Notes: generated by a model from the sequence alone, not told the origin. Shown: positions 652-51,980, counted from the stretch's first letter. The stretch: 64,000 nt of DNA from a virus (IMGVR_UViG_3300043411_001246:7458-71457), one strand, 5' to 3'. Program-made: numbers and translations.

Positions 652-1035
652 ATGGCCCAGACCTCCCCCGTCCGCGCACTAGCCTTTGACCGCATGATGC
701 CAGAGCTTCAGGGCGCCGACATGTCACTCGCCGACCGACTGACCGCCTACCGGGACGCGGTGCTGTCCCTGGAACTGACCTGCGCGCACCCCAACAACCG
801 GGACGTAAACCCCGCCCTCTTCCGCGCCTACCTGGCCCACGCACGGGTCATCCTCGAGACGCTGCGCGGGCTGACATCCATGACGGACACGGGAGCCAGC
901 GAGGCCACGAACGAGCAGCGCGAGGAGATTGCCGACCTGTGCGACCGCGCGGGCGAGCTGGTGGACAGCTTCGCCATGGCCTCCAATGCCCACGTCCTGC
1001 TGCCAGCTTTCGAGGCTGAACTCCAGGGCGCCTTA
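652..1035 (+). CDS. putative antitoxin; end placed at TTA 1033-1035 (standard code: 1137)
   Basis: Acidic helical ORF directly upstream of the RelE-like gene; leaderless start TAAGCT-N6-ATG; TTA lies 2 nt before the toxin GTG. Confidence 0.55.
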
Positions 1036-1037
1036 CC

Positions 1038-1445
1038 GTGGCCAACATCACGATCACGCCACCACGGCAGGGTGGCACGTTCGAGCGGGATACGCGACGG
1101 CTGGCCAAGTCGTTCCCGTCCGTCGGCGACGATGTGACCGCAGCCTACCAGGCCCTCTCCACCGTGAGAGACCGCGGGCCGTACAACCCGCCACAGGTCT
1201 CGCTCGTGCCCGGGTTCGGTCGGGAGCTGCTCAAGGTGCGCGTCGCCTCTTCGGACCAGAAGAAAGGCAAGAGCGGCGGCTTTCGCATGGTGCTCTTGCG
1301 CGTCGGGGCAGGCTGGCGCCCGGTGGCCATCTTCGCCAAGGTGCAGGCCGAAGACTTCGCCCACCACGACCTGCTACGGCGCCTTGCCGAGGAAGATGCC
1401 AGCGATGGCGAGCCCTCGCCCTTGCCACCAGCCGCGACCGAGTAG
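1038..1445 (+). CDS. RelE/HigB-2-family toxin
   Basis: FERDTRRL...KVRVASSDQKKGKSGGFRMV...IFAK motif typical of RelE/HigB-2 ribonucleases. Confidence 0.8.
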   Translation: MANITITPPRQGGTFERDTRRLAKSFPSVGDDVTAAYQALSTVRDRGPYNPPQVSLVPGFGRELLKVRVASSDQKKGKSGGFRMVLLRVGAGWRPVAIFAKVQAEDFAHHDLLRRLAEEDASDGEPSPLPPAATE

Positions 1446-1481
1446 CCCGACCCCTCGCCCGGCCGGTGCCTACCCCTGCCC
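1446..1481 (+). repeat. 36-bp direct repeat, right copy flanking the TA module
   Basis: CCCGACCCCTCGCCCGGCCGGTGCCTACCCCTGCCC directly after the toxin TAG. Confidence 0.95.
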
Positions 1482-1496
1482 CAAGATAGAAAGTGG

Positions 1497-1524
1497 TTGA
1501 CCTGTACCTAAGTTGAGTTAGCTT
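1497..1524 (+). promoter_or_regulatory. rightward sigma70-type promoter with overlapping operator
   Basis: TTGACC 1497-1502, 16-nt spacer, TAGCTT 1519-1524; operator CTAAGTTGAGTTAG 1508-1521. Confidence 0.7.
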
Positions 1525-1535
1525 CTGTGGCTAGC

Positions 1536-1841: not shown

Positions 1842-1844
1842 CCC

Positions 1845-3871: not shown

Positions 3872-6079
3872 ATGGATAACCAGAACAACAACGCCACCGT
3901 CTCCAAGTCGCTTCAGCCCCCCGCCGTCATCCCCGGCGCCGTCTATGTCGGACGCACGCAGAGCAAGGAGGGGCGCGTGGCCCGCGTCGAGTTCGTCAAC
4001 GACGACGGCACCATCATCCTCTCGCACTACGGGCACCGGAACAAATCGAAGACCACCTACCCGTCGCTGCACTCGTCTTACCGCCTGTTCGACCCCGCCA
4101 AGGACGCCCCGGTGGACTGGTCCAGCCCGGCGGCCCGGCCGTCCGGCGAGAAGACCGACGGCGCCGAGAGCCTGAACTCCGAGAGCACCGCCGGCCACCG
4201 CAGCAGCGTCCGCACCATGCGACAGCGCGCCAGCACGCCAGTCGATGCGCCGACCGTCGTGGAGATGCCAGCGACCGAAAACAAGCCGGATGCGCAGGCC
4301 GACCAAGACGCGCCAGGCGAGTCCTTGACGGAAGACCCGGCGCTGCCCGAAGGTCATCGCGAGTTCCGTTACGCCGGCATCTTGATGGCTCTGCCCGTTG
4401 CCGCTGGTGAGCCGCTGGTGTGGGGCGTGTCCATCGCCAACGGCGTCGGCTACACGAGGCCGCGGCAGATTCGCCGCACTGTCGCCCGCGCCGAGAGCAG
4501 CGGTCTATTCGGCAATGTCCTGTGGAACAAGACGATCTTCAAGTCCGTCATGCACAACGGCGGCGAGCGCACGGCCGTCGCCAATGACCCGTGGCTCACG
4601 GAGTTGCAGTCGGTGGCCCTCGTGGGCGGCCGCCAGACGGAGCTGGCCGAGGTCGGCGCCTTCCTGAACAAGCTCGCCGACGCCTTCAAGGCGGCTCGCG
4701 CGGCGATGGGAAATGCAAACGGCAACATGAGCCACTTCGGCCCCGACATGCTGCCGAAGCCCACGGAGACCGCCACTGTCTTCGGTCGTGAGGTTCCCTG
4801 CTACCGGAGCCGCAAGGACTTCTCGGTGTGGGTCGTGGGCAATGACACGGCCAAGGCGTTCGGCATCTCCCTCGGGTCGCTCTACAAGAAGTTTGCCAGC
4901 GACGGCCCGACTCGTTCCGGCAAGTTTCTCTGCGAGGGCAGCAGAGCGGGCGGTGAGCACAAGTGGCTTGCTCGCCTCGACCTCGTGGAAGAACTCATGG
5001 CGCCGCTGGTCGCCGCCACGGCAGCGCCCCCGCCGGCCGAGGTCGCGACGCCGCCTGCGCCCGCGCCGGCCCCGCCCGCCGATGACTCGACCATTGAGGA
5101 GGAACTGGGCGTTTCGATCCCGGACGGGATGATGCTGGCCAACATCAAGGGCGTCGCCCTGGCTGTGCCCGGCAAGGATGACGGCGAGGCGCTGCTCCGT
5201 GACGTGACCTTGGGCGAGCGGTTGGAACTGTCTCAGCCCCGCGACATCCGGAAGACCATCAAGGACATGGCTGCGGACGGGGTTTTGGGGGTGGTCGCGA
5301 TGCGCGTGCGGCAGGCGCGCATCGCGAAAACCGGCGCAGTTTCGGGTTTCGAGGAGCGCGAGGTCACCGAGTACTGGCTGACCGAGAAACAGGCGCTCAA
5401 GGTCATCATGCGCAGCAAGTCCTCGGTGGCTTACCGCATCGTGGACGAGGTGACCGACGTGTTCCTGGCCTGGCGCCACGGCCGTCTGCCGCCCGCCGCC
5501 CCGCCGACCGACCTGGCAGCCGTCATGCAGATGGTCCCGGTCATCATCGAAGCGGTGCTGGCGCGGCTCCCGTCGCAGCCGGCGAGCACCAGCCCGGACA
5601 GCGACAGGGTGCGCCAGGACGCCGAGACCCTGCGCCGGCAGCGCGCCAACGCGGCCAAGAAGGCCACGGCGACCAAGGATGTCAACGCCATGCTCGACGC
5701 GGTCACCGACGATCTGGCGCCGCTGGTCCACCGCTTCACCAGCGAGCGCATGACCCGCGCCGACCTGCGCGACGCCAGCGCCGTCAACCGCTGCCTGCGC
5801 CCGAGCGAGATGCTTCAGCAGTTCAACGCCTACCTGCGGGCCGCGTCGTCCAAGCTCTCGGCGGAAGAGCAAGAGGCGCTGACCGGGCTCGGGCCCGAGG
5901 GCGAGATGCGCAACCGCGTCCTCTACACGCTGTTCAACCGCATCTCGAACAACGTCAAAGCCGAGAAGGAAATCGAGGAGGACGGCGAGCCGCGCATGGT
6001 CCCGGTCCTTCCCTGGATTCCCAAGGTCGGCGCTGTGCCCAACCCGCGCCAGACCGCCATCCCCGGCACCGGCCGCTTA
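3872..6079 (+). CDS. multidomain antirepressor-like DNA-binding protein; end placed at TTA 6077-6079 (standard code: 6289)
   Basis: Two related domains (RPRQIRRTV..PWLTELQ and QPRDIRKTI..EYWLTEKQALKVIMRS) resembling phage antirepressor N-terminal domains. Confidence 0.6.
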
Positions 6080-6285
6080 CCGATTCCCCGCACCCCACTG
6101 CCGCCGGTCTTGCGATGGGCACCCGGCGGCAGTGGGGCCGCGCCTGCTGTCACAGGTGCGGTTGTCCCGGTGCCCATCGCCGAAGGACCGCAGATGCAAA
6201 GCCGCAGTGATTCAACGACGACGAACAAGGCCACCGTACCGCACCGCGGACGGGGGTTCAACCGCAGCAACCCGGATGTGAGCCA

Positions 6286-10223: not shown

Positions 10224-10257
10224 CCCCTCGCCGGCCCGGCGTAAGGTCGGGCCCATG
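10220..10257 (+). promoter_or_regulatory. GACCCCTC leaderless promoter element
   Basis: CTGACC-16-TAAGGT-7-ATG(10255). Confidence 0.75.
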
Positions 10258-11148
10258 GGCGAGAACAGCGGAATCTCTTGGTGCCATCACACCCTGAACT
10301 GGTGGATGGGCTGCACGAAGGTCTCGGCGGGCTGCAAGCACTGCTACGCCGAGACGCTGGTAACCACCCGGATGCGGCTGCCGGTCTGGGGTGACAAGGC
10401 CGAACGGAAGGCCACGAGCGCATCGACGCGCAAGCAGGTCCACACCTGGAACCGCAAGGCCAGGGAGGCCGGCGAGCGGCATCGGGTCTTCTGCTCGTCC
10501 CTGTCGGACGTGTTCGAGGACCGGCCCGACCTGGCGCCGATGCGCGCCGAGTTGTTCGCGGCCATCGTCGCGTGTCCTGACCTGGACTTTCTGTTGCTCA
10601 CGAAGCGACCGGAAAACATGGTCCGGCTCGCGCGTGACGCCGGGTGGTCGGGCGCGTGGCCGTCGAACGTCTGGGCGGGTTGCACCGTCGAGAATCAGGC
10701 GATGTTCAGGGAGCGGGTGCCGCACTTGCTTGAGGTGCCGGCGTCGGTGCGGTTCCTGTCGTGTGAACCGCTGCTAGAGAGCATCGACCTGACGCTGGTG
10801 CAGGCCGGTGCCTACGGGGTCAATCCTCTGCACGACATCGGATGGGTGATCGTCGGTGGCGAGAGCGGGCCGGGGGCGCGCCCATTCGATCTGGAGTGGG
10901 CTCGCCAGATCCGGCACCAGTGCAACGCCGCGGGGACGGCGTTCTTTTTCAAGCAACTCGGGGCCCGCCCCACGACGCGACTGGAGAGGGACGAGGTTTG
11001 GCCGGGTCACTCGTTCGGTCAGGGGCCCGTGCAGTTTGATGGCGACGGCTTTGGCAACTATTCCGTGCGTGGCATCAAGGACCGCGCTGGTGCCGACCCC
11101 GCCGAGTGGCCGCTCGATCTGCGGGTGCAGGCGTTCCCCACGCGCTGA
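10255..11148 (+). CDS. phage Gp37/Gp68 (DUF5131) family protein
   Basis: ISWCHHTLNWWMGCTKVSAGCKHCYA, FCSSLSDVFE, LLTKRPE, RFLSCEPLL, WVIVGGESG. Confidence 0.92.
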   Translation: MGENSGISWCHHTLNWWMGCTKVSAGCKHCYAETLVTTRMRLPVWGDKAERKATSASTRKQVHTWNRKAREAGERHRVFCSSLSDVFEDRPDLAPMRAELFAAIVACPDLDFLLLTKRPENMVRLARDAGWSGAWPSNVWAGCTVENQAMFRERVPHLLEVPASVRFLSCEPLLESIDLTLVQAGAYGVNPLHDIGWVIVGGESGPGARPFDLEWARQIRHQCNAAGTAFFFKQLGARPTTRLERDEVWPGHSFGQGPVQFDGDGFGNYSVRGIKDRAGADPAEWPLDLRVQAFPTR

Positions 11149-33709: not shown

Positions 33710-34170
33710 TGGCCTACCTGACGCAGACCGACCTGGAAAACAGGCTCGGTGTCCCTCGCGTCCTGGCCCTCTACGACGACGACAACACCGGGACCATCAA
33801 CGCGGCGGCCATGACGGCCCTGCTGCAAACGGCCTCGGACCTCGTGGACGGCACCATCGCGCGCAGCTACACCGGCACCTTCCCGATGGCCTCGCCGCCC
33901 CCGGCGCTGGCCAAGGAAGCCGCGGTCCTGTACGCGATGGCGCTGTCGTTCGAGCGCAAGCCTGAGTTCGCGCTGCGTCTCGAGGACAGCTACCTGACGC
34001 GGCTGCGCACGCAAGCCGACAAGCTCTGTGAGCGCATCGCGACCGGGCTGGCCAAGATGGTCGATGCGCCGCCCCCGGTGGCGTCGTCGGTCGTCACGGG
34101 CGGTGTCGTGCAGACCTCCACCACGATGTTCACCGTCGTGGACGGCTCCTCTTCGTTCGGCGACTTCTTA
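33709..34170 (+). CDS. head-tail adaptor (Mu gp36 / DUF1320-like); end placed at TTA 34168-34170 (standard code runs to 35556)
   Basis: MAYLTQTDLENRLG..L.DDD..ASDLVDG.I..Y..P; TTA overlaps the next ATG as TTATG. Confidence 0.75.
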
Positions 34171-35128: not shown

Positions 35129-35131
35129 CCC

Positions 35132-37724: not shown

Positions 37725-37855
37725 GACCCGGCCCGCCCGCTGTAGCCCGCCTCCCACATCCCGGCGCCTGACCGCGCCACCCGACCCCGTGACCACGGCC
37801 CGACCACGCACAGACACGCGCGTGCGTCGGGCCATTGCCGTTTGAGGTACCTCCC

Positions 37856-38236: not shown

Positions 38237-38868
38237 TGCCGCTGCCCGAGAACAAGCCGAGCAAGATCCCGGCCGACATCGACCCGCGCCACGTCGCGCC
38301 GGGCGTGCTGGTCCAGCGCCTCATCTCGCGCGGCAAGCTGCGGCACGCCGTGGCCGACTATCCGCGCTTCGATGACGCCGGCCTGCCGGTGGCCAAGGTC
38401 TACGTACGGTTGCTCACCGTGGCCGAGCAAGACCTCGCCCTGGCCAACGCGCGGCTCTACGTCGAGCGGCTGCTGGCCAGCAGCAAGAAGGACCAGGCCC
38501 TCGACTGGCGGCCAGAAGAACTGGAGCACAACGCCCGCATCACGGAGATCCTGGCCGTGGCGTGCCGCGAGCCGGACGACCCGGACAAGGCGTTCTTCCC
38601 GCACGGCGTCCACGAGATGCGCGAGCACTGCACCCCGGAAGAACTCGGGGGCCTCGCCAACGTCTACGCCAAGATCGCCGCCCAGCACCCGCGCCTCGGT
38701 GACCTGACCGATGGTGAGATCGAAGCCTTCTTGCGTGCCGTCAAGGAGGGCACGCTCGAACACCCTTTCTCCTTTTGCTCGCGAGAGCAACTGGAGACCC
38801 TGCTCGATTTTTGCGTGAGGCGGTTGGACGAGACGGGTGCCCTCTCGACTGGCCTCCCACCGACCTGA
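38236..38868 (+). CDS. tail assembly chaperone (G); -1 frameshift product ends at 38918
   Basis: Between tube and tape measure; slippery C CCT TTC at 38763-38769. Confidence 0.75.
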   Translation: MPLPENKPSKIPADIDPRHVAPGVLVQRLISRGKLRHAVADYPRFDDAGLPVAKVYVRLLTVAEQDLALANARLYVERLLASSKKDQALDWRPEELEHNARITEILAVACREPDDPDKAFFPHGVHEMREHCTPEELGGLANVYAKIAAQHPRLGDLTDGEIEAFLRAVKEGTLEHPFSFCSREQLETLLDFCVRRLDETGALSTGLPPT

Positions 38869-38921
38869 TCCTCGCCCTCGGCGTCATGCGCGCCGTGGAC
38901 GAGTTCAACAAGAAATAAACC

Positions 38922-41288: not shown

Positions 41289-41294
41289 ACTACC

Positions 41295-42224
41295 ATGCCC
41301 ATCGACCCCGTCACCAAGCGTAGCGACCTCGATGCGTTTGCCAAGATGCCCAAGGCGTCGTGGCGGGACATCGAGTTCGTGTGCGGGCCGATGGATTGGG
41401 GGTTCACCCACGCCCACGCGGCCCACCTCTACCCGGATCGAGATGCCGGCTACATCGAGAGCACCGGGCGCAACCCGGCGACGTTCTCGTTCCTGGCCAT
41501 CTTCCGCAACGGCGTCGTGGGCGAGCGGTTGCAGTTCCCGACGCTCTACCAGGCGTTCACCCGGGCGTGCATGGACCGCACGGCGGGCGACCTGCTGCAC
41601 CCGGTCCTCGGGGTCATCAAGGTCAAGTGCCAGTCCTACAAGGCGTCGTTTGACGTGATGCGCCGGGACGGTGCCGATGTGCAGGTTGAGTTCATCGAAT
41701 CGACCGACGAGGCCGACGAACTTGACGCGCTGCTCGGGCAGAACAGCCCGATGGGCAACTGCATCACGGCGGCCCGCAACCTCGACGACGCGCTCGGCAA
41801 CGTGAGCCCGGCGCCGCCCCCGCTGCCGCAGTCGCTCAAGCCGTCGCTGCTGGACAGCATCAAGCAACTCAACGGCGCGGTGCAGCAGTACAAGCTCGGC
41901 ATCGGCAACATCGCCGGGCAGATCGATAGCTACGCCAGCGCCATCGACGACCTGACCAACACGCTGCAAGACCTCGACGACCCGAAGAACTACCGGGCGC
42001 TGGACGCCTGCGAGCGCATGTTCGCGTCGCTGCTGGCCCTGTCGGTCGAGGTCACCAAGAAGGCCAAGCCGACCATCCCGGCCATCGTCCCGTTCACCAC
42101 GTCGCTGGCCGGCGCGGCCGGGTACTTCGGCATGACCGTCGGCGCCTTCGCCAAACTGAACCCCATCCTCGCCGGGCAGACCACCCTCCTCGTGGGCACG
42201 CCCGTCATGATCGCCGCGGTATGA
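41295..42224 (+). CDS. DNA circularization protein (Mu gpN-like)
   Basis: ASWRDIEF..HLYPDRD..ESTGR..GDLLHPVLG..VEFIE. Confidence 0.85.
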   Translation: MPIDPVTKRSDLDAFAKMPKASWRDIEFVCGPMDWGFTHAHAAHLYPDRDAGYIESTGRNPATFSFLAIFRNGVVGERLQFPTLYQAFTRACMDRTAGDLLHPVLGVIKVKCQSYKASFDVMRRDGADVQVEFIESTDEADELDALLGQNSPMGNCITAARNLDDALGNVSPAPPPLPQSLKPSLLDSIKQLNGAVQQYKLGIGNIAGQIDSYASAIDDLTNTLQDLDDPKNYRALDACERMFASLLALSVEVTKKAKPTIPAIVPFTTSLAGAAGYFGMTVGAFAKLNPILAGQTTLLVGTPVMIAAV

Positions 42225-43507
42225 CCTCCCCCGACCTCGACCGCCTCACGCTGACCATCGAGGACGGGACGCAGTACGACCTGTGGACCGAGTGCGTCAT
42301 CACCGACTCGTTCCTGGATCCGTGCCAGACGATGCAACTTTCCGTGGCCGCGGACGAGACGCGGTTCGGCCTGCTCGGTCGGCTGCGCAAGGGCGCCCAG
42401 TTTCTTCTGGAGATCAACGGCAACCCGGTGCTGGGCGGCTTCCTGGACAAGGTCGGGATGCGGTCGAGCCGGGCCGGGCGGCTGGTCACCATCACCGGGC
42501 GGGACGTGCTCTCCCCTGTGGTGGATTCCAACGTCGATCCGCGGCTGCCGGTCAAGAAGGGCATGTCCTTGATGGACCTGGCCAAGCTCCTGTTTGAAGA
42601 GCACTTCCTGCTGCCGGTGAAGGTGTCCGACTCGGACGCCGTGGTCATCGACGGCCGCAACCGCGCGGTCGGCAAGCCGGTCAAGGCCAAGCCCAAGAAG
42701 GGCCGGCGCAAGACGACCGACACGTTGAAAGAGATCTACCCGAAGGCGAACGAGGGCGGGTTTCAATACTTCACCCGCTTTGCCCACCGCGTCGGCTACC
42801 ACGCCTGGGCGCTGCCGGACGGGCAGGGGATCGTGATCGGCACCCCGACCTACGAGCAAGAACCGGCCGGGGAGATCCGGCTGGTGCGCGGCGCCGCCGG
42901 CCTGTCGAACACCATCGAAGAGAGCAGCATCGACAGCGACAACACCCGGGTGCCGTCTCACGTCTTCGTGCGCGGCAAGGGCAGCAAGCCCGGCGACAAG
43001 TCCAACCCCATCGGCTGCGCCATCAACCCGGACGCGCCCTTCTTCAAGCCGTTTTACCTGACGGACGAGGAGAGCGCGACCAAGGACCACGCCGACGCGG
43101 TGGCGCGGTTCGTCATGGGCAAGGCCCTGCGCGAGGCGCTGCGCTACACGGTCAAGGTGCGCGGGTTCACTGACCCGACATCGGGCCGCGTCTGGACCGT
43201 GGACACCGTGGTCAACGTCAAGGACGAGGACTGTGGCGTCGAGGGCTTGATGTGGGTGGAGCAGCGGACCTTTCGCAAGTCGCGGTCCGGCACCTTCACC
43301 GAGATGACGCTGATCCCGGCGGATAGCCTCTTGCTCGATTACTACGCCAGCGACAGCCCGCCGCCGCCGCCTGAAAACTACAAGGCCGCCGCCGGGCAAC
43401 TGCCCAAGAAGCCCGTGACCGAGCGGCAGCCGGACGCCACGCAGCGCACCTACCTCGGGTGGTTCCCCATCGTCGTGGACAACGAGACCAACAAGGACCG
43501 CCCATGA
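42221..43507 (+). CDS. baseplate hub protein (Mu gpP-like)
   Basis: VLGGFLD..ITGRD..VVDS; WTVDTVVNVKDE. Confidence 0.85.
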   Translation: MTSPDLDRLTLTIEDGTQYDLWTECVITDSFLDPCQTMQLSVAADETRFGLLGRLRKGAQFLLEINGNPVLGGFLDKVGMRSSRAGRLVTITGRDVLSPVVDSNVDPRLPVKKGMSLMDLAKLLFEEHFLLPVKVSDSDAVVIDGRNRAVGKPVKAKPKKGRRKTTDTLKEIYPKANEGGFQYFTRFAHRVGYHAWALPDGQGIVIGTPTYEQEPAGEIRLVRGAAGLSNTIEESSIDSDNTRVPSHVFVRGKGSKPGDKSNPIGCAINPDAPFFKPFYLTDEESATKDHADAVARFVMGKALREALRYTVKVRGFTDPTSGRVWTVDTVVNVKDEDCGVEGLMWVEQRTFRKSRSGTFTEMTLIPADSLLLDYYASDSPPPPPENYKAAAGQLPKKPVTERQPDATQRTYLGWFPIVVDNETNKDRP

Positions 43508-44145
43508 GCACCTGGATCGATTGGGTGGACGTGACCGAGTCCACATTTTCCAAGGACGCCAGTGGTGGCGAGGCCCAGGTGGTCACCTGCGCCGTGCGCG
43601 ACGCCGGGCAAGAGGACGGGCAGACGGGCCGAGATGTCGAGGTCTGGGGCCTCGGGTGCATTGTCTACCGCCCGGCCCCGCCGGACGATAAGGGCAAGTG
43701 CCAGGCGGCCGTCGCCACCGTCGGCGGCTCGCGCGTCATCGTCGCCACCCGGGACACCCGGGCCGCCACCGCGGTCGGTGACCTCGGGGAAGGGGACGCG
43801 GCCTTCTGCGCCCCGACCAGCCCCACCGCACTCATCGGCAAGGTCGACGGCAGCATGGCTATGCTGCAACAGGGGGCCGACGCCGACGCCATGATCGCGA
43901 TGGAAAAGGACGGCGCCATCATCCTGCGCAACAAGTGGGGCCAGATTCAGCTCGATGAAAACGGGTTCGCCGTGGTGCTGACCTCGGGCGAGTCGTTTGA
44001 GCTGGCGCCGGCCAGCGCGCAGATCACCGCCGACGTGGTGAAGATCGCAGGCGGTGTGGTCTCCCTCGGCGCCGCCGCTGCCGTGCCGCTGACCTTCGCG
44101 CCCACGTCCGGCGTGGTGAAGCCCGCGCCCAACATCCTCGTGTGA
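43504..44145 (+). CDS. baseplate central spike (Mu gp45 / gpV-like)
   Basis: RDTR..LGEGDAA; beta-helix-like C-terminus; position. Confidence 0.75.
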   Translation: MSTWIDWVDVTESTFSKDASGGEAQVVTCAVRDAGQEDGQTGRDVEVWGLGCIVYRPAPPDDKGKCQAAVATVGGSRVIVATRDTRAATAVGDLGEGDAAFCAPTSPTALIGKVDGSMAMLQQGADADAMIAMEKDGAIILRNKWGQIQLDENGFAVVLTSGESFELAPASAQITADVVKIAGGVVSLGAAAAVPLTFAPTSGVVKPAPNILV

Positions 44146-44152
44146 CCTCGCC

Positions 44153-44482
44153 ATGACGCGCTGCAAGCTCCCCGGCTTTGACCTGAAACTGCCGGGGCTG
44201 CCCAGCCTGCCGCCTGCCATCCCGTTCCCGCGCATCCCGATTCCGCGGCTGCCGACGTTCGGGCTGCGGCTGCCGGGCTTTGCGCTGAAGCTCCCCGGGT
44301 TGCCGTCGCTGCCGCCGCCGATTCCGTTCCCTCGGCTGCCCATCCCGCGGTTGCCGACCTTCGGCCTGCGCCTGCCCGGCTTCAACCTGAAGTTGCCCGG
44401 GTTGCCCTCGCTGCCGCCGCCGATTCCCCTGCCGCGCATCCCGATTCCGCGGCTGCCTGCCTGCCCCCTGGACGCCCTCTGA
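44153..44482 (+). CDS. Pro/Leu-rich tandem-repeat protein
   Basis: About 3 x 34-aa repeat LKLPGLPSLPPPIPFPRIPIPRLPTFGLRLPGF; TGATG coupled to the next gene. Confidence 0.65.
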   Translation: MTRCKLPGFDLKLPGLPSLPPAIPFPRIPIPRLPTFGLRLPGFALKLPGLPSLPPPIPFPRLPIPRLPTFGLRLPGFNLKLPGLPSLPPPIPLPRIPIPRLPACPLDAL

Positions 44483-44955
44483 TGCCCGGATTTGGACTCA
44501 CCTCGTTTGGCCTGACCGCCTCGGGTTTTGGCTCGACCGCGGGCCAGCCGTCGCCCGGGTCCGGCTACGCGCCGACCGTGGACAACGTGCTGGGCCGCAA
44601 GGTGGACTTCCCGACCAAGGACTACGTCGTGGACTACGACGCCACCGGCTGCCCGCACGAGTCGCAAGACCCGGTGGCGCAGCAGGTGGCGTTCCGTCTG
44701 ACCACCCGCAAGGGCCGGCTGCCGTACGACCTGGCATTTGGCAACGACTGGTTGAACCTCGACAAGATGCCGGCCGACCTCGCCGGCTTTGGCCTGCGCG
44801 CGGCCAACCTGGCCCTGCAAGACCTCATCAACGCGGGCGCCGTCCGCATCGTCTCGGTCGAGGTCGAGCGCGACGGCGGCACCGCGATCCAGGCCGTGAC
44901 CTGGCTTGACCTGCGCACCCGGCGCGAGCGCACCACCCGGACCCGGAGAGCCTGA
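44482..44955 (+). CDS. baseplate wedge protein (gp46 / gp25-like)
   Basis: LTTRKG..FGNDW..ALQDLI..IVSVEVE. Confidence 0.7.
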   Translation: MPGFGLTSFGLTASGFGSTAGQPSPGSGYAPTVDNVLGRKVDFPTKDYVVDYDATGCPHESQDPVAQQVAFRLTTRKGRLPYDLAFGNDWLNLDKMPADLAGFGLRAANLALQDLINAGAVRIVSVEVERDGGTAIQAVTWLDLRTRRERTTRTRRA

Positions 44956-44958
44956 CCC

Positions 44959-46479
44959 ATGGCCCAGACCGCCAACGACGTGCCGACCCGCGAGCAAGCG
45001 GTCGAGCGCGCTCTCCAGTTTTACCAGCGCGGCCTTGTCCGGCAGGCTGGCGTCTCCGCGTCCTCGGCCCGCGCCGCCACCGCCAAGGGCACCGAGCGAT
45101 GGCTCACCGTGCAGGCGTGGGCGCAGGGGTTGGAGGTGGTGTTTGCCAACGCCATCGCGCTCGAGGACGCCGCCCTGCCCGACACCGCCATCGGCGACGA
45201 CCTCGTGCGGATCTGCGCCATCTACGGCGTCAGCCCGAGCGGGGGCGCAGGCGCGCAGGGCCCGGTCACCGTGACCTGCACCGGCAGCGTCACCTACCCG
45301 GAGAGCCGGGAACTCACCAGCAACACCACCGGCAAGCGCTACCGGGTCGTGGCCTCGACCGTGGCCAGCGACGGCGACAGCGTCAACATCGTCGGCATCG
45401 ACGTGGGCGTGGCGTCCAACCTCGCCGCGGGGGAGGTGCTGACCTGGACCTCGCCCCCCATCGGCAGCGGGTCCACCTGCGTGGTCGCCTCCGGGGGACT
45501 GGTCGATGGCAAGGACGCCGACAACGACGGGCGGCTGCGCGAGCGACTGCTGAAGCTCCTGCGCGAGCCCCAGAACGGCGGCTCGTGGGCGCACTACCGG
45601 CAATGGGCGGAAGACGCCTCCGCGTCGGTCGAGGCGGCCTACGTGTACCCGGCGGCACAGGGGCCCGGCACGGTCCACCTGGCCTACACGGTCGAGGGCA
45701 CCGCGGACAACGCCTACGCCCGCACCGGCACCACCGCCCTGACGACGCTGGTGGCGCAGGCGGTCGTGGACGAACAACCCGAGTTTGCCGACGTGACCGT
45801 GACGACCGTGGCCCACCAGGACATCGGGCTGGCGTTCAAGCTGTCGCTGCCCGAGCCGCTGATCGGCGGCGGGGCCGGCGGGGGCTGGATCGATGAGGTC
45901 GGGGACCGCTGGGCGATTGCCAAGATCGGCGCCGGCAACGTCGACGGGACCGTCAAGGTCACCGTGGCCTCGTCGTCGCTGACGTTCACCACCAACGCCT
46001 ACAACGAGCCGGTGGATGACTCGTGGGTCTATCTCTTCTCCGTCGCTGACCGCGTGCCGTACCTGGCGCAGGTGGCCAGCCACAGCGGCAGCGCCGGGGC
46101 GTGGGCGGTGACCCTGGACCGCAGCCTGCCGACCGTCGCCGTGGGCGATTACGTCTGGCCGGCGTGTGAGCAGGGCGAGGACTACTGCGCCACGATCCAG
46201 GCCGAGGTGGCCAAGCTCGCCCCGGGTGAGAAGACCGCCGACGCCGACGTGCTGCCCCGCGCCTACCGCCACCCGCGCGCCATCGATGGCAGCCCGTCGG
46301 ACCTCACCACCACGCAGCTCGTCGCCTTGCAGGTGGCGCATCGCGAGGTGACCAACGCCGCGTATTTCGAGGCCGACGAGTCCACGGTGACGCTGCCGCT
46401 GGCGCCGGACGCGCCGGGTGCGGTGACCGACCCGCCGAACGTGTTCCGCGTCGCCACCCTGGCCTTCTACCCCACCTGA
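44959..46479 (+). CDS. baseplate J / Mu gp47-like protein
   Basis: ALPDTA.GD.L, GGLVDGKDAD..LRERLL, GGS..HY.QWA, GPGTV. Confidence 0.9.
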   Translation: MAQTANDVPTREQAVERALQFYQRGLVRQAGVSASSARAATAKGTERWLTVQAWAQGLEVVFANAIALEDAALPDTAIGDDLVRICAIYGVSPSGGAGAQGPVTVTCTGSVTYPESRELTSNTTGKRYRVVASTVASDGDSVNIVGIDVGVASNLAAGEVLTWTSPPIGSGSTCVVASGGLVDGKDADNDGRLRERLLKLLREPQNGGSWAHYRQWAEDASASVEAAYVYPAAQGPGTVHLAYTVEGTADNAYARTGTTALTTLVAQAVVDEQPEFADVTVTTVAHQDIGLAFKLSLPEPLIGGGAGGGWIDEVGDRWAIAKIGAGNVDGTVKVTVASSSLTFTTNAYNEPVDDSWVYLFSVADRVPYLAQVASHSGSAGAWAVTLDRSLPTVAVGDYVWPACEQGEDYCATIQAEVAKLAPGEKTADADVLPRAYRHPRAIDGSPSDLTTTQLVALQVAHREVTNAAYFEADESTVTLPLAPDAPGAVTDPPNVFRVATLAFYPT

Positions 46480-46489
46480 GACCGCCACG

Positions 46490-46978
46490 ATGTCGACCCC
46501 TATTGCCCCCGAGACCCCGGACCTCAGCACCTTCGGTGCGCCCTACCTGGACGCGGACGCCGTGGTGGACCCCGAGACCGAGATGGCCGCTGCGGCCATG
46601 AACTTGCTGGCCACGCAGGTCGTGGCCACCGGCCACACCGCGCCGCGTGCCTGGGCCCTCTGCACCATCTCCGGCGGGGTCATCACCCTGGCCGACCATG
46701 ACGCCGTGTGGGGCTCGGGCGCGGGCGTGGCGCCTGTCGCGGCCCGGTCCGGCGCCGGGGTCTACACGGTGACGTGGGCCTCCGCGTACGACGACCTGCA
46801 AGATGTGCCCGAGTCGCACTCCACCATCCTGCGCGCCGCGGTCGCCTCCGGGTACGCCGCCGCTGCCGCCCGCATCGTCAACGGCTACCTGTCCTCGGCC
46901 ATCGTCGCCACGGTCAAGGCGTACGACGCGGCCGGCGTCGCCGCCGACGTGGACACCTTCACCGTGACGGTGTGGTGA
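46490..46978 (+). CDS. tail / baseplate structural protein
   Basis: RSGAGVYTVTW motif; position in the baseplate module. Confidence 0.55.
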   Translation: MSTPIAPETPDLSTFGAPYLDADAVVDPETEMAAAAMNLLATQVVATGHTAPRAWALCTISGGVITLADHDAVWGSGAGVAPVAARSGAGVYTVTWASAYDDLQDVPESHSTILRAAVASGYAAAAARIVNGYLSSAIVATVKAYDAAGVAADVDTFTVTVW

Positions 46979-47790
46979 TGGGGGCCTTTGGCGACTGGCG
47001 GGCCCCGTTCCCGCTGCGCTTCGGGGGCCGCCCTCACGCGGTGGCCGACATGCTCTACCAGACCGTCAAGGGCGCCCGCCCGGACGCACTGGCCGGCGGG
47101 GCAGGCACCGAGGTGGACCTGGAAAACAAGGTGATGGCCCGGCTCCTGTGGATGGGCTGGCGGGCGACGGCGCGGCGCGTGGCGCAGCGCGACCCGGCCA
47201 AGCTCACCGCGGACGTGCGGCCGGTCACCCTACCGGACACCGGCACCACCAAGACGACCTCGACCCTGGCCCGGTGGGAGGCGCTGCTCTACCTGACGCC
47301 GGCCCCCGGTGCCTCGGCCCGGACCCGGCGCGCGGCGGTCAAGGCGGCGCTGGTCTCTACCTCGTCGGCGCGGCGTGTGGCCGTCGAGGACGCCATGCGC
47401 GCCATCTTCGGGTCGTGGCTGGTGGGCCTGGCCGAGAACCGCGCGACCGACGTGGACTACCCGGGCCGGGCCACCGTGGGCGATGTCCACGCCTACTGGC
47501 CGACCACGCAGACACCGCCCACCCCGGACGCCTTTCACGACGCAGACAAGCCGGGCGAGTTTTCGGCCACCTACCCGTGGCGGTCGGCGCTCTGCCTCGT
47601 GTGCGTGCAGATCCAGCCGCCGGCCTCGACCTCGCAAGACGAGATCGACGCCAAGGTGGGCAAGGCCGTCGCGCAGCTCGACGACATGCTTCCGGCGTGG
47701 ATGAGCGCCACCCTTTCGCAGTTCCCCCCAGACCAGACCGTCGGCGGCTTTTACGCCGGGGTGTCTCTGGTCGGCCTGACGGCGGTGTAA
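46978..47790 (+). CDS. baseplate wedge protein (Mu gp48 / P2 gpI-like)
   Basis: LARWEALL..RRAAV..DMLPAW. Confidence 0.65.
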   Translation: MGAFGDWRAPFPLRFGGRPHAVADMLYQTVKGARPDALAGGAGTEVDLENKVMARLLWMGWRATARRVAQRDPAKLTADVRPVTLPDTGTTKTTSTLARWEALLYLTPAPGASARTRRAAVKAALVSTSSARRVAVEDAMRAIFGSWLVGLAENRATDVDYPGRATVGDVHAYWPTTQTPPTPDAFHDADKPGEFSATYPWRSALCLVCVQIQPPASTSQDEIDAKVGKAVAQLDDMLPAWMSATLSQFPPDQTVGGFYAGVSLVGLTAV

Positions 47791-47793
47791 CCC

Positions 47794-48519
47794 ATGTCCT
47801 CCACCAAAGTGTTCATCCCGGCCATCTCCACCGGGGAGCGGCTGACCGCGGCCAAGATCAACGGGCTCGACACCGCGCAGTACAACAGCCTGACGCGCAA
47901 TGAAAACGTGGCGCTGCTGGACGACGCGGGGTTTGACCTCGGCGCATTCGACTTCCTGATCCTCGGCAGCGGGGCAGGGAAGTTCAAGCCGGACGGGGCT
48001 TACACCGAGTTCCAGGGGTACCCAACGGTGGACTCGTCCTCGCGGGCGGTCACCGGCTACGCGCCGCCGTCGGTGCCGATCTACGACAAGGTCAGCGCCG
48101 TCGGGTTCTCCGAAGGCATCCAGCGCATCCAGCAAGTCGTCGTCTCAAGCACGCTGAACTTCTGGATCACGCTGCCCATCGGCACGGTCATCTCCACCAT
48201 CTCGGTCGGGCTCAAGAAGGCCGCCGGCACCGTCGGGTTGCCGGGCGTCATGCCGACGGTGGCCCTGTACTACTACGACATGACGACCGACAGCACGGCC
48301 ACCGCGGTCGGCTCGGCCGCCGCGGACACGTCGGCCAACATCGCCGCGTACCGGACATTTCACCTCGTCACCACCGCCAGCCTGAACCACACCGTCGCCG
48401 CCAGCCGTAACTACATCGTCTCGGTCACTGGCGACGATGACTCGTCCAGCAGCGGCACCGGCCTGAACATCTACCGCCCTTACATGACCGTGACCGCCTC
48501 GACGATCCGGGCGATGTTA
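47794..48519 (+). CDS. tail fibre-like protein; end placed at TTA 48517-48519 (standard code: 49335)
   Basis: GERLTAAKIN N-terminus, beta-rich body; + strand coding character ends at the TTA, which is also the antisense gene's TAA. Confidence 0.7.
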
Positions 48520-49449
48520 CGGGCACACGCCGGGCGCATCGGTCGGCGCGCACGAGCCGGACAGTACGGCGGCCATGTAGCGGCGCATGGCGTCGGCCGC
48601 ACCGCTCACCAACCGCGCCTTGACGCTGGCCAGAATGGGCTCGGGCAACAGGGCGCAGTCGGTGTCGCAGGTCACGCACGCCCGGACCTTCTCGGCCGGG
48701 ATGGTGGGGCAGCCCACCACGGCCGGACCCGTGGGCAGGCACCCGACGGCGGCGCCCCACGAGTAGCCCGCCACGCTGGCCGGCATCTCCACGACCATGC
48801 CGCTGGACAGGTGGCAGCCCTGCGGGTCGAGGGCTTCGCCCGTCGGCTCCCCAATGGTCGCCTCGACGTGGGCCTTCACGCCCTTGTAATAAACGATGTC
48901 AGCGGTCAGCTTGTTGGCCAGAAACTTCATGCCGGTGAACGAGGTCAAGCAGTCCGCGTGCCGGTGGTAGGACAGCGGGCCGGCGAGCCGGACGCCGCAG
49001 GCATAGTCGTCGGCGCCGTCGCAGTAGGTGACCTCATACTCAAGCCCGAGGCTCTCTTCGTGGGTGCCCGGCACAACGGCATGGGTCAGCGCGGTGTCGT
49101 CGCAGGCGTCGCAGATGTGCGCCCCGCCGCCGCCCTCGCCACAGACCGGGACGCCGCCGCCCTCGCCCCCTTGCCCGGCCTGCCCACCCGGGCCGGCCCC
49201 GCCCTGACCCGCACCCCCGGCGAGCTGGCCACCCGCGCCAGCCACCCCGGCAGCGCCCGCCCCGCCGGACCCGGCCACCATGCCGCCGGCACCTGCGCCG
49301 CCTTGCCCAGCCCCACCCGAGGCCACCCCGCCTGACCCACCGCCACCGGCCGCAGCGGCCCCGCCCGCGCCCGCAACGGCTGGCGCCGGGCTCTCCCCGG
49401 GGTCGGAGCACGCGAGCAGAGCCAGGGGCAACAGGAGCCAGGGACGCAT
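48517..49449 (-). CDS. Cys-rich lipoprotein with Gly/Ala linker (moron)
   Basis: MRPWLLLPLALLAC lipobox; GAGG repeats; leaderless TATCCT-6-ATG. Confidence 0.8.
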   Translation of the reverse strand: MRPWLLLPLALLACSDPGESPAPAVAGAGGAAAAGGGGSGGVASGGAGQGGAGAGGMVAGSGGAGAAGVAGAGGQLAGGAGQGGAGPGGQAGQGGEGGGVPVCGEGGGGAHICDACDDTALTHAVVPGTHEESLGLEYEVTYCDGADDYACGVRLAGPLSYHRHADCLTSFTGMKFLANKLTADIVYYKGVKAHVEATIGEPTGEALDPQGCHLSSGMVVEMPASVAGYSWGAAVGCLPTGPAVVGCPTIPAEKVRACVTCDTDCALLPEPILASVKARLVSGAADAMRRYMAAVLSGSCAPTDAPGVCP

Positions 49450-49490
49450 GGGGACAGGATACGCCGGCCCAGCCCGGGTGCTACCCAGGG

Positions 49491-50225
49491 TCAAAGCGCC
49501 CACTCCTTGCCGCCCATGCACTTGACGTGGGTGAAGCCGATGGTTCGCAGGCTCTCCGCGGTCTCACCCTTGGACCACTGGCTACCCCAGACCATGCAAG
49601 AAACCGGGTCGTGAGAGGGGATAAGAACTTCGTCCTGGTCTCCCCAAGTCTTGCTCTGCCGGTTGAATGTCCTGGCGATGTTGCGGCGCCCGGCGCGCAG
49701 GGCCACCGCGGCGACGTGCTGCCGCCTCTCTCCCTCGGGCACGGCCATGGTGATGACTGTCACCTTGTCGAGCACCTTCCTGAACTCGGCGCCTGTCTGT
49801 AGCCCATCCGGTAGCGACTCGTAGGACTTCCACAGGTCGAGAATCTTGTCTTCCGGCTCGGGCTCTTTCACGACGGTCGCCGCGGGTCTTGGGTTGGCCT
49901 TGCTCATGTCGGCCGCGGTCACGATCTCGGCCGGCTTGGTAATGGAGTAGATGGCCACGGCAATCGCGCCGAGGCCGATGGCGACAACGGCAAGGGCTCC
50001 CGCTGCACCCGACGACTGCGGCGCCTTGGTCGGCTGCGGCGCCAGGCCAAGCACGGCCGCGCCAAACTCAGGCACCCTGGTCAGCGGGTACCACTCGTTT
50101 GATCCGGCCGCACATACCGTCGCGCCGGGCGGCACCTTGCCGGCCTGAATACCTCTCACGATCAGATCCGTGGACAGCGGGCCGATGGGCGCATCTGCGC
50201 CGGGTGCGTGAACGTACCATTCCAT
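49491..50225 (-). CDS. GYF_2 (DUF4339) domain membrane protein (moron)
   Basis: WYV..IGPLS..I..G..V..G.NEWYPL..VPEF, followed by one TM helix. Confidence 0.8.
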   Translation of the reverse strand: MEWYVHAPGADAPIGPLSTDLIVRGIQAGKVPPGATVCAAGSNEWYPLTRVPEFGAAVLGLAPQPTKAPQSSGAAGALAVVAIGLGAIAVAIYSITKPAEIVTAADMSKANPRPAATVVKEPEPEDKILDLWKSYESLPDGLQTGAEFRKVLDKVTVITMAVPEGERRQHVAAVALRAGRRNIARTFNRQSKTWGDQDEVLIPSHDPVSCMVWGSQWSKGETAESLRTIGFTHVKCMGGKEWAL

Positions 50226-50333
50226 CCGGCCATGCTCGCTCCATGACGCGCCGTGGCGCTAGCGCCCTGACCTCACCAGCGCCCTGCCACCGTGGGGCGT
50301 TGTCGTTTTGTCCTCCCGACCTGCCCGAGACCC

Positions 50334-51980
50334 ATGGCTATCACCTCGATTCGATTCACCCCGGAGACGCCGGGCCCCGGGCAGAGGGTGACGTGCATCC
50401 ACGTCGGCACCACCACCGGCAACGAGACGCGGTACTACCTGCTGTCCGCGCCGCCCTCGTCCGCGCTGGTCACGATGGCGACCTACGCCGACCTGGGCAA
50501 AACCCTGGCCGACACGCGCATCACCCTCGACGGCAGCGGCCACGGGGTCTTCACGCCGGACGTGCCGGGCGATTACGCCGTGGTGGCCCGGGACATCACG
50601 ACCTACCGCTTTCAGCCGCACTACCAGGGTGACGTGCCAGACGGCACCGACCCGATGGCGGCCGACAACGAAGAGGCAAGCTTCACCGTCCTCGGCGTGG
50701 TGACGCCGGCCGCCACCGACCAGCCCTCGTCCAGCGGCGTGACCCTGGCCGTCTGGCAGCAGGTGACCCGGACCATCGGCTTCGGGCCGGACACCGCGAG
50801 CCTCCAGATCAAGGCGGCCAACGCCTTCGTGTCGGACCCGGACTTCATCACCGATGCGACGCTGTTGAAGAACGGCAGCACCGCGCCGGCCAAACTCGCC
50901 ATCTACGATCCGCAGGTTCTACAGGTCCTCGACCTCATCCGGACCACGGGCAACTCCAGCAACCTGCCCACGAGTCAGGATCTGCTGGCATACCTCGTGG
51001 ACGGGTTCAACGAACACATCGCGCTCCAGTCGCACAAGGTCCACACCGCGGCCGACGTGACCAACACCCTGACCAGCACGGCCAGCGTGACCGGCACGGC
51101 GCCGAGCATCAAGACGCGCCTCGACGACATCGTTGCCAAGTACAACGCGCACCGCATCCTGACCGCCGGCTCGGTCCACGCCGCCGCCGACGTGACCAAC
51201 GTGATGACGGCCATGGCGTGTACCGACACCGACACGGCCATCGCCTACTTCGAGCACGTCTACGAGGAGCTTCTGTCCCACGCGACGGACACCGCGCCGC
51301 ACGATGTCAGCACGCCGAACGAGGTTGTCGACGGCTACTTCGGGTGGTTGGCCGAGCCGCCGACCACGCTGGCCGAGGTGGCGCAGGCCATCAACGGGAC
51401 CGCGGGCAGCCGGTGGGAAAACTACGGGCTCACCAGCCTGTACGAGCAGCACCGGCAGCGCGTGTTGGTCTACGCCCACGCCGGCACCGGCCTCGGCCCG
51501 GACGCGGTCAACGGCGTGCTCTACCTCGGCGGCAGCCTGACCAACCTGATCGTCACCGCCAACGCCCTGGCCGCGGCGCTGCGGCGCCACATCTCCAACC
51601 AGGACGCGGCCGGCGCCGACGCCGCCACGCCGTACCACTACACCGACGGCAACAAGTCGCGGCTGCCTCGCACCAGCGCCAGCGATATCCGCACGCTGGC
51701 CATCCTGATTGAAGAGCTGTGGATCTGCCTCGAATCGCACATGTGGTCAGCCGGGCCCCCGAGCGGCTACGTCACCGTGTCCACGGCGGGCGCCCGAGGT
51801 CAGCACGGTGACCGCGGGTGGGGTCGCATTGCCTTCCAGGGCACCTCGGACGGGGTGCGCCCGACGCAGTTGATCCGCCTGCAAAAGGCATTCGACCGGG
51901 CCCTGTCCCCCTCCGTCGATCCGCCCCTGGACGTGGGAATCCTCGCCGCGATTCTGATCCTCCGGTCCGGCTTCTCCTTA
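50334..51980 (+). CDS. fibre-like structural protein with His repeats; end placed at TTA 51978-51980 (standard code: 52172)
   Basis: Repeats FNEH..VHTAADVTN and YNAH..VHAAADVTN. Confidence 0.7.

Follow-up and report, generated by a model that had tools for sequence, protein, structure and literature searches.

Does TTA end protein-coding genes in this phage and, if so, what reads it? The window analysed here, a stretch of 64,000 nucleotides, is part of a 71-kb contig (70.6% GC) from a Mu-like myophage. A preliminary description had proposed that TTA acts either as a stop, as in the mitochondrial code of Thraustochytrium (NCBI table 23), or as a stalling terminator. That genes end at TTA is upheld by homologues, stop-codon swaps and separate assemblies. 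Taking these lines of evidence together, we consider it very probable that TTA marks real protein ends in this phage lineage.

In-frame TTA codons in the phage genome

TTA occurs 88 times in the contig, counting the two strands together. Counting as in-frame those that follow 40 open codons whose coding score reaches 8 or more, we found only five in coding sequence, and none of the five was internal (table 1). This count agrees with the preliminary description: all five lie at the coordinates given there, in frame with an upstream coding stretch. At 5/5 of them the downstream coding score was −4 or lower. The same collapse was seen for 20 other rare codons pooled in 150/866 cases, and at that rate the chance of five out of five is (150/866)^5 = 1.6e-4. 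A blind change-point scan, which retrieved ORFs whose best coding segment ends at least 20 codons short of the stop, returned 11 ORFs, six of them with tails scoring −8.9 or lower. Five of these six were the TTA sites, the best segment stopping 0 to 11 codons ahead of the TTA; the sixth involved ATA, 28 codons ahead of a normal stop.

Table 1. Genes, TTA codons and neighbouring features of the window (positions counted from its first letter).
Feature	Position	Strand	Remark
Gene 1, 127 aa, placed like an antitoxin gene ahead of a RelE-like gene	652..1032	+	stops before TTA 1033-1035
TTA site 1	1033..1035	+	in frame with 652-1032; GTG 1038 lies 2 nt further
Gene 2, 735 aa, without Pfam family	3872..6076	+	stops before TTA 6077-6079
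TTA site 2	6077..6079	+	homologue ends; coding potential fading at 6077
Strong hairpin between site 2 and next gene (GTG 6286)	6089..6142	+	from minimum free energy
Gene 3, Mu gp36-like head-tail adaptor, 153 aa	33709..34167	+	PF07030 E 2.1e-8; phrog_195 E 1.8e-13
TTA site 3	34168..34170	+	forms TTATG with the ATG (34170) of the following gene
Gene with TAA end at 47788-47790	46972..47790	+	two relatives have TTA at that codon
Gene 4, 241 aa, downstream of baseplate genes	47794..48516	+	stops before TTA 48517-48519
TTA site 4	48517..48519	+	read on the minus strand, this triplet is the TAA that ends the convergent gene
Convergent gene	48517..49449	−	TAA stop; minus-strand coding potential begins at 48517
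Gene 5, 548 aa, without Pfam family	50334..51977	+	stops before TTA 51978-51980
TTA site 5	51978..51980	+	homologue ends; intact in X1 contig

Standard stops are used too, as the preliminary description had stated: 87 confident genes end in TGA (80), TAA (4) or TAG (3). The base that follows is C for four of the window's TTA codons and T for the fifth, and C for 41 of the 80 TGA stops. In relatives, C likewise follows the L013 TTA and three of those in G769. The share of genes with a TTA end is about 5%, so that the statistical base within the genome is small.

Homologues end at the TTA codons

Alignment of homologues, which the preliminary description had named as a check, placed their ends at the exact TTA residue at sites 2, 3, 4 and 5 (4/5 sites). 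For gene 2, all four homologues with C-terminal cover ended at or near the codon: the last residue of P0028, P0030 and P0038 is the one before the TTA, and P0029 ends two residues short of it. Read-through would end in a GTGA overlap at 6286, as noted earlier. From 6077 to 6257 a coding signal was absent in every frame, and the hairpin in this interval (table 1) has a minimum free energy of −43.9 kcal/mol (z −3.38), with 0/200 shuffles as stable. The tail downstream of site 2 looks like an intergenic element, because the relative P0032 joins a different, RHH-like gene via L to the same tail.

At site 3, coding potential passes to the next gene exactly at the TTA. The adaptors of L001 and L002 end in ..GDF and ..GDL, followed by TGATG at the matching codon (2/2). 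Reading through the TTA would give the ORF 33706-35556, which at 616 aa spans three genes, in line with the about 615 aa estimated before. At site 4, four of the five homologues end at the codon: P0024-P0027, 42-48% identical to gene 4, finish at exactly the residue before it, while P0023 (93%) has L there and unrelated sequence beyond. Among the 12 aligned homologues of gene 5, nine end in ..GFS, GFT, GFG or GWT and three have L, then unrelated sequence. The codon at site 5 was TGA or TAA in 7/7 IMG/VR loci (four distinct sequences). The read-through ORF 50334-52172 overlaps the ATG at 52055 by 118 nt, confirming the earlier figure.

The triplet at site 4 is, as previously described, the reverse complement of the convergent gene's TAA, by which this TTA is additionally constrained. 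The product of the convergent gene has a lipoprotein-like signal (MRPWLLLPLALLAC...) with a putative lipobox, recognised by eye.

Site 1 is the weakest of the five, because no distant homologue of gene 1 was found. Its sole homologue, P0022, is 92% identical, of equal length and retains the L at the TTA. Coding potential and GC3 pass from the frame of gene 1 to that of GTG 1038 at this site, GC3 from 1033 onward being 0.83 in the toxin frame versus 0.57 in the upstream frame. The preliminary description was right that the read-through ORF (652-1137) overlaps GTG 1038 by 100 nt, but overlooked a standard-code alternative, in which a GTGA overlap at 1134-1137 would give a 161-aa upstream protein and a 103-aa toxin.

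TTA exchanges with standard stops among relatives

In the relatives, TTA holds a stop position and interchanges with TGA or TAA, without internal use. Such swaps affect the TTA codons of sites 3 and 5, and the reverse was seen at 47788, where the window and G001:C61 read GTG TAA CCC ATG, and L013 and L014 read GTG TTA CCC ATG. The distant relative G769, with a portal 43% identical, has four genes ending in TTA, three of which match the end of the window orthologue exactly or within one residue. No internal in-frame TTA was found in the window contig, L009, L013, L014 or G769; L129 and G770 have one in-frame TTA each, 16 and 17 codons ahead of a standard stop. In all, ten distinct TTA end sites were collected from two diverged phage groups. 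The sense codon at a stop position was TTA in every case in which the DNA was seen, and at the further, protein-only sites the residue was L. TGA has eight one-step sense neighbours, and by chance TTA would be drawn six times out of six with a probability of 4e-6.

These counts bear on the reading that TTA is simply leucine and the phage tolerates lost stops, carrying junk C-terminal tails of 34 to 462 residues whose starting points reflect coincidence or mutation bias. The extensions past the five TTAs (34, 70, 462, 272 and 64 codons) resemble the null obtained by mutating normal stops (median 53, 95th percentile 304), and since they do, we see no selection for or against them. Read-through at 47788 in L013 and L014 would, moreover, yield an in-frame fusion of two neighbouring proteins. 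We nevertheless regard this reading as very improbable: lost stops are replaced by TTA alone, with L and no other residue at the protein-only sites; the 462-residue out-of-frame adaptor tail is hard to tolerate, yet kept in two strains; and the ten sites in two diverged groups all lie at exact ends, none internally.

A trivial origin, with TGA or TAA rendered wrongly as TTA during sequencing or assembly, needs a single base change per case, and the preliminary description had raised this concern. Other assemblies and a 98.3%-identical strain, however, keep the TTAs. The X1 contig, from a separate assembly of the possible source run and covering 33900-52100, retains all three TTAs in its range and differs by 2 letters in 18.2 kb, one of them 37010 T>C, with no T>G and no T>A. 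The TTATG of site 3 is kept in L009, a separate record 98.3% identical over 9.6 kb, and site 4 is TTA also in L007 (93% amino acid identity). Other genomes have TTA at further gene ends. If random G>T errors were frequent enough to strike 5 of about 85 TGA stops, many GAG and GAA codons should likewise have become in-frame stops, against which the long open genes appear to argue. We give an artefact next to no chance.

Host lead and reading of the signal

On the 71-kb contig we found no tRNA gene and no RF-1 domain, and none of the 38 window proteins scanned had a translation-related function; 25 of the 38 had no Pfam match. The sole host lead is G001, an actinobacterial MAG (69% GC) binned with at least six fragments of the phage. 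Co-binning is weak host evidence, and no phage fragment joined to host DNA was found in G001. This genome carries tRNA-Leu(UAA) and reads TTA as a sense codon, since 11 of its 12 ORFs with an in-frame TTA have it inside or upstream of a Pfam domain. In its RF2 the SPF motif, whose serine we assume to correspond to Ser204 of organelle RF2, is intact. When patterns of RF2 carrying Ala or Gly instead of this serine were sought in 401 genomes sampled from G001's class, a single chance match resulted; the SPF control matched only 28/61 genomes, so that this search is weak. Either G001 is not the host, or the TTA signal acts only in infected cells. The tRNA and the sense TTAs argue against the four-stop code that the preliminary description had considered for G001 itself, but not for the true host.

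If a host, possibly G001-like, reads UUA as leucine, the phage might alter decoding, for instance through an unrecognised factor that inactivates tRNA-Leu(UAA), so that UUA would terminate only during infection. The binning of phage fragments with a genome in which TTA is sense would fit this, as would the many phage proteins without a known family and the RelE-like protein adjoining site 1, a weak match (E 0.0051) below the Pfam cut-off. Against it, a candidate factor was not found among the features searched above, and the link to G001 is the co-binning of unjoined fragments. Such a switch seems improbable to us.

Little or no charged tRNA-Leu(UAA) in the host would instead leave UUA hungry or unassigned: ribosomes would stall there and the chain be freed by rescue, by an ArfB-type factor, by drop-off of peptidyl-tRNA or by a release factor acting slowly. 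A comparable case is bldA in vegetative Streptomyces. On this view TTA would terminate conditionally without having been reassigned. This reading agrees with the positional evidence as well as termination by a release factor does, and G001 encodes an ArfB-like GGQ protein. PMC10732093 describes UUA in Streptomyces as a site of pausing or recoding, with a tRNA that does not yet function early in growth. According to the same source, stall-and-rescue usually leads to tmRNA tagging and degradation. This would be a poor route to structural proteins, the head-tail adaptor among them. Were G001 the host, its tRNA-Leu(UAA) would moreover have to work during growth, because TTA lies in genes of the class I cysteinyl-tRNA-synthetase, GHMP kinase and LysX types. 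Starved decoding is, in our estimate, possible but rather unlikely.

We give about an even chance to UUA being a true fourth stop, read by a release factor in a high-GC bacterial host lineage and its Mu-like myophages. GC pressure would have cost the true host its efficient decoding of UUA, and translation would be terminated there by a class I release factor, probably of RF2 type. The phage, whose contig carries neither tRNA nor release-factor domain, would follow the code of its host. Organelles with a UUA stop offer a model for this release-factor route.

Comparison with known systems

Base composition may empty a codon until its reader is lost and translation halts there, as for AGA and AUA in Micrococcus luteus and CGG in Mycoplasma capricolum. 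The phage TTA resembles these unassigned codons; they are, however, simply avoided and not known to be used at gene ends, whereas here working genes have TTA as their last codon. In crAss-like and Lak phages TAG or TGA is read as an amino acid, often with suppressor tRNAs or release factors. As in those phages, the gene map is correct only under a non-standard code, but the change runs in the opposite direction, from sense to stop, on a contig without tRNA or release factor.

Parallels also come from organelles. According to PMC12574857, labyrinthulean (Thraustochytrium) mitochondria and peDinoflagellate plastids use UUA as a stop and have a changed RF2 Ser204, UUA and UUG are stops in mitochondria of Marsupiomonadales and Pseudoscourfieldia, and organelle UUA-stop codes are tied to changes in RF2 Ser204 or mtRF1a. 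As in the codes described there, TTA in the phage takes the place of standard stops of homologues, does not occur inside genes and serves alongside the standard stops. The difference is that this is a phage of a bacterium, with only about 5% of genes using TTA.

In the Streptomyces phage phiHau3 and two prophages, UUA leads translational bypassing in the large terminase, thought to depend on a missing cognate tRNA (Antonov et al. 2023, PMC10732093). There too a rare UUA in a high-GC phage is a signal and not an ordinary leucine codon, but a gap of 7 or 10 nt comes after the UUA and the same protein then resumes. We rejected bypassing of this type for the present phage, where homologues stop at the TTA and the frames beyond it belong to distinct genes that have start codons of their own. 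Regulatory genes of Streptomyces such as adpA contain bldA-dependent TTA codons (PMC10732093, PMC2000904). The bldA system shares with the phage a very rare TTA in a high-GC genome, and in it the availability of the single tRNA that reads the codon can gate expression; its targets have the TTA inside the gene, read as Leu, whereas the phage has none inside genes. A regulatory leucine TTA of this kind was rejected for the phage, with no internal case, and is encountered in G001 (11/12 ORFs). For the adpA uORF, PMC10732093 presents the idea of a +1 push that turns UUA and the next base into a stop. This was rejected as well: it needs G or A after UUA, and a slip at the phage sites yields no stop because the next base is C or T.

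Implications

In the literature searched, we found no sense-to-stop code change outside organelles; such changes are reported only for mitochondria and plastids. UUA termination in a bacterium-phage system would, if true, extend free-living genetic codes in a new direction. Distinctive here are the swaps of TGA, TAA and TTA between close strains and a small genome without its own tRNA or release factor; the co-binned MAG with sense TTA makes it a more pointed question where the signal is read. A UUA stop is overlooked by gene callers and code-inference tools because they ask only which amino acid a codon encodes. Standard annotation of such phages produces false fusions such as the 616-aa 'adaptor' and spurious overlaps, and it misses or displaces genes, as did the gene caller used here; artefactually extended proteins are already in databases (P0001, P0002, P0013, P0023 and P0032). 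The code would also be a host marker, as only hosts without efficient UUA reading should support such phages. If true, the finding would fit a testable codon capture model, in which GC pressure empties a codon that is then reused as a stop.

Coding signal at in-frame TTA codons

The preliminary description had counted five in-frame TTA codons, each at a gene end and none internal. Genes were called with a simple codon-usage model for which long ORFs of high GC3 from the contig itself served as the training set. The contig contains 88 TTA trinucleotides on both strands, most of them in the register xxT-TAx, i.e. a T-ending codon followed by Tyr. When at least 40 open codons upstream and a coding score of at least 8 were demanded, five TTAs were in frame (table), so the contig-wide count bore out the earlier one. 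The coding score over the next 40 codons was clearly negative after all five, compared with 150/866 for 20 other rare codons pooled; the chance probability of five out of five at the pooled rate is 1.6e-4. Sliding profiles revealed a collapse of the frame's coding signal and GC3 at each TTA, with another frame or strand taking over at four of them (table). The fading of coding-like composition proposed for site 2 was also seen, no frame taking over for ~200 nt after 6077. Recomputation reproduced the read-through overlaps of 100 nt (site 1) and 118 nt (site 5), the adaptor of about 615 aa and the GTGA overlap at 6286, and the base 3' of TTA is C or T, as previously stated.

We also scanned for change points without regard to codon identity and looked for ORFs whose coding segment stops at least 20 codons before the stop. 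The scan listed 11 ORFs, six with tails of -8.9 or lower, and five of these six were the TTA sites. The best-scoring segment in such a scan tends to stop directly before a rare codon, a bias of which strongly negative tails are independent. The sixth strong-tail ORF breaks at an ATA 28 codons upstream of its normal stop. ATA as a second odd codon was rejected: three of the four in-frame ATAs sit 18-39 codons before normal stops, and the fourth has an N-terminal D12 methyltransferase match upstream and a DPPY motif downstream in the same frame. The ORF around this fourth ATA starts as a D12 class N6-adenine DNA methyltransferase, has weak coding signal at ~56785-57330 and, with no intervening stop, continues in frame into sequence whose beginning resembles that of an independent lipoprotein gene (MRRLLALVLVAC..); gene breakage or fusion may lie behind this ORF. 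The 87 confident genes with normal stops end in TGA (80), TAA (4) or TAG (3), and TTA would therefore close about 5% of genes.

Coordinates of TTA codons and other features (window positions unless a relative is named)
Feature	Position	Observation
TTA site 1, gene 1 (antitoxin-like position)	1033	read-through tail 34 codons; frame of next gene takes over at 1038
TTA site 2, gene 2	6077	read-through tail 70 codons
TTA site 3, gp36-like adaptor	34168	read-through tail 462 codons; frame of next gene takes over at 34170
TTA site 4, gene 4	48517	read-through tail 272 codons; minus strand takes over at 48517
TTA site 5, gene 5	51978	read-through tail 64 codons; frame of next gene takes over at 52055
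TTA sites of relative G769	14257, 19646, 29116 (L134/L135)	
TTA site of G769, minus strand	L130 5588	
In-frame TTA of relative G770	55358 (L139 region)	
Hairpin downstream of site 2	6089-6142	15-bp stem; -43.9 kcal/mol; z -3.4
D12 methyltransferase-like ORF	56470-57711	PF02086 at residues 9-72; DPPY near residue 230
In-frame ATA in this ORF	56845	
DUF5131 protein	10255-11148	PF07505, E 4.9e-71
Prok-JAB domain protein, stand-alone	57742-58230	PF14464, E 1.1e-9
GACCCCTC elements	587-59738	21 copies on +, 2 on -
Portal_Mu		E 2.4e-40
Mu-like_Pro		
gp36-like adaptor		PF07030
GpP-like and Baseplate_J proteins		
DnaB-type helicase		

Retention of the TTA codons in other assemblies

Other assemblies uphold the TTAs as genuine. 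In a separate assembly of X1, a possible source run, a single 54-kb contig covers 33900-52100 with two differing letters (one of them 37010 T>C) and no T>G or T>A change. The contig of another record (L009) retains the TTATG of site 3; over 9.6 kb it shows 152 mismatches (98.3% identity). Both observations argue against an artefact of sequencing or assembly, to which we assign a negligible probability.

At 37010, the window has a T, within an out-of-frame TTA at 37009, and all four runs compared (X1 included) have C; this T is likely a consensus difference or an error in the record. In runs X3 and X4, the end of gene 4 together with the convergent lipoprotein-like gene (48070-49192) is replaced by a diverged stretch of equal length, and 49458-50324 by shorter or longer inserts. 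This region looks like a swap zone adjoining the tail-fibre-like genes.

Ends of homologous proteins

The claim that the proteins end at TTA was supported by homolog alignment at sites 2, 3, 4 and 5; at site 1, the evidence is coding potential. In two IMG/VR relatives of the adaptor at site 3 (66% and 64% identical), the protein closes with ..GDF or ..GDL and TGATG comes next, where the window reads ..GDF and TTATG. For site 5, we aligned 12 of 21 homolog matches. Nine (36-57% identity to the window protein) end ..GFS/GFT/GFG/GWT, at the residue preceding TTA; the other three (P0001, 98%; P0002, 83%; P0013, 55%) continue with L and then unrelated sequence. The DNA at seven IMG/VR loci reads GGC TTC TCC/ACC TGA or TGG ACG TAA, four of the seven being mutually near-identical, which leaves four distinct sequences. 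These loci were found with the protein alignment as query; a single site-5 protein found none in viral contigs. At site 4, four of five matches (42-48% identical) stop at the residue preceding TTA and the fifth (93%) continues with L plus a different tail. The related locus L007 (93% amino acid identity) has the same TTA.

At site 2, the three best full-length representatives and one fragment end ..IPGTGR/SGR/TSR or two residues sooner, just upstream of TTA. In P0032, the same 72-residue 'tail' follows another small gene via L, so the TTA and the stretch downstream behave as an intergenic element. A hairpin lies in the ~200 nt without coding signal; no U-run follows 3' of it, and a role as a terminator-like or regulatory RNA element is conceivable. 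Site 1 has one close homolog only (P0022), of equal length and with L retained, and a standard-code alternative exists via a GTGA overlap at 1134-1137. We infer that the L at the ends in P0001, P0002, P0013, P0022, P0023 and P0032, known as protein only, is a TTA codon. A metagenome scan with the baseplate protein gave three loci, none covering a TTA site.

Exchange with standard stops among relatives

The gene at 46972-47790 ends GTG TAA CCC ATG in the window and in fragment C61 of the actinobacterial MAG G001, and GTG TTA CCC ATG at two loci of different metagenome records (L013, L014). Site 3 reads TGA and site 4 TTA in the contig of L013. Two close genomes thus each have several TTA-ended genes, partly at different genes, as expected if TTA and standard stops were interchangeable.

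In G769, a 36.6-kb virus record with a 43% identical portal, four TTAs are in frame, each at a gene end, and the share of TTA-ended genes is higher than in the window. One follows ..LLQIAKNA, where the window ortholog has ..LLQPAKNA and a stop; another follows 126 residues, the length of the window ortholog; a third lies one residue beyond the end of the 46490-46978 ortholog, followed by the cATG of the next gene. The minus-strand TTA ends a Cys-rich, lipoprotein-like gene and, read on the opposite strand, is the TAA at which the convergent site-5 homolog stops, a second case of a single triplet closing two convergent genes. The TTA at 14257 scored as internal because the downstream gene shares its frame; with an RBS and an ATG behind it and the ortholog stopping at the same point, we rejected the internal reading. 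Among complete relatives, G771 has no in-frame TTA and G770 has one, 17 codons before a standard stop. In G770 (86.7 kb, 74% G+C), coding signal drops at this single TTA, which may be a further TTA end.

The observation holds and now covers ten distinct TTA-ended sites in two diverged phage groups, eight of them with homolog support, and we are highly confident that these proteins truly end at TTA. Tolerated stop loss, with TTA read as Leu and the tails carried, appears very improbable. Mutated normal stops give tails similar to those at the TTA sites (median 53 codons), so tail lengths are uninformative on this reading either way. Against it, TTA is the sole sense codon at stop positions wherever DNA was seen, and the protein-only sites show L; a single substitution can turn TGA into eight sense codons, mostly of higher G+C, and the chance probability of six out of six is 4e-6. 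A 462-residue out-of-frame tail on the adaptor, retained in two strains, is likewise implausible.

Genome content and a host lead

The record is a single 71,457-bp virus contig with a given CheckV completeness of 82%; the window is its bases 7458-71457, with a G+C of 70.6%. Profile matches identified a Mu-like head and contractile-tail module (table). ARAGORN found no tRNA or tmRNA in the contig, a six-frame search found no RF-1 (release-factor family) domain, and no translation-related Pfam family occurred among the 38 window proteins scanned. No close cultured phage was found: megablast of 20 kb against a cultured-phage collection gave no match, and tblastn of the portal and DnaB reached just 25-27% identity (portal at most 25%) to Pseudomonas, Ralstonia and Mycobacterium phages, too little for a host call. 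DnaB fell into viral clusters only in the Protein Atlas. According to the index, the stretch or part of it is present in 20 runs from 12 studies of freshwater, groundwater, wastewater and activated sludge. The Prok-JAB and DUF5131 proteins lie amid accessory genes. The + copies of GACCCCTC mostly lie directly upstream of early or accessory genes; a tie to the TTA sites was rejected, with no element at any of them.

The sole host lead is G001 (2.6 Mb, ~69% G+C), titled Candidatus Nanopelagicales bacterium. It contains at least six short phage fragments, 93-100% identical (C22, C37, C61, C76, C211 and the contig of L009), with no phage-host DNA junction among them. Composition and coverage probably placed them in this bin, and for a phage of 70% G+C and a genome of 69% a shared bin is weak evidence of a host. 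The site-5 protein was found in 2/390 genomes of the order of G001, namely in G001's own phage fragment and as one weak match.

TTA is clearly a sense codon in G001. Of 17 in-frame TTA candidates in 60 sampled contigs (544 kb), 11 are followed by continued coding signal; TTA lies within or upstream of a Pfam domain in 11/12 ORFs tested, the TTA-bearing ORFs including EAL, acyl-CoA dehydrogenase, class I tRNA synthetase, GHMP kinase and LysX-type genes. No case examined had TTA at a gene end with no stop close by. Comparison of G001 with the phage (no internal, five terminal) gave a Fisher p of 2e-4 with the six unclear G001 cases dropped and 0.035 with these counted as non-internal. G001 also has tRNA-Leu(taa), an ArfB-like protein and an RF2 with SPF, the codon-reading motif. 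A search for Ala/Gly at the SPF serine matched 1/401 genomes of G001's class, with the SPF control found in only 28/61, so that the negative carries little weight; the matching genome, G266, was rejected as an altered-RF2 host, the match having arisen by chance in a non-RF2 frame. Since G001 reads TTA as sense, either it is not the host or the signal acts only in infected cells. The latter would correspond to a phage-induced switch of decoding, which we regard as improbable.

Possible decoding of UUA

In organelles, a UUA stop accompanies a Ser204 change in RF2 (PMC12574857), and within the open-access papers and bioRxiv preprints searched, UUA as a stop was found in organelles only. The same literature yielded no report of phage or bacterial genes that end in TTA. 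In Streptomyces and its phages, UUA is described as a pause or bypass codon (PMC10732093). Bypass of the phiHau3 type (section 3.4 of that paper) does not fit here, because the window proteins do not continue past TTA. A +1 or -1 frameshift at TTA was likewise rejected: the next base is C or T, so a +1 shift gives no stop, and there is no slippery pattern.

Stalling at an unreadable UUA codon followed by ribosome rescue is a possible but rather unlikely account of the same ends. We see about an even chance that UUA is a fourth stop, read by a release factor in the true host. The UUA reader would probably come from the host or be an unrecognised protein of the phage.
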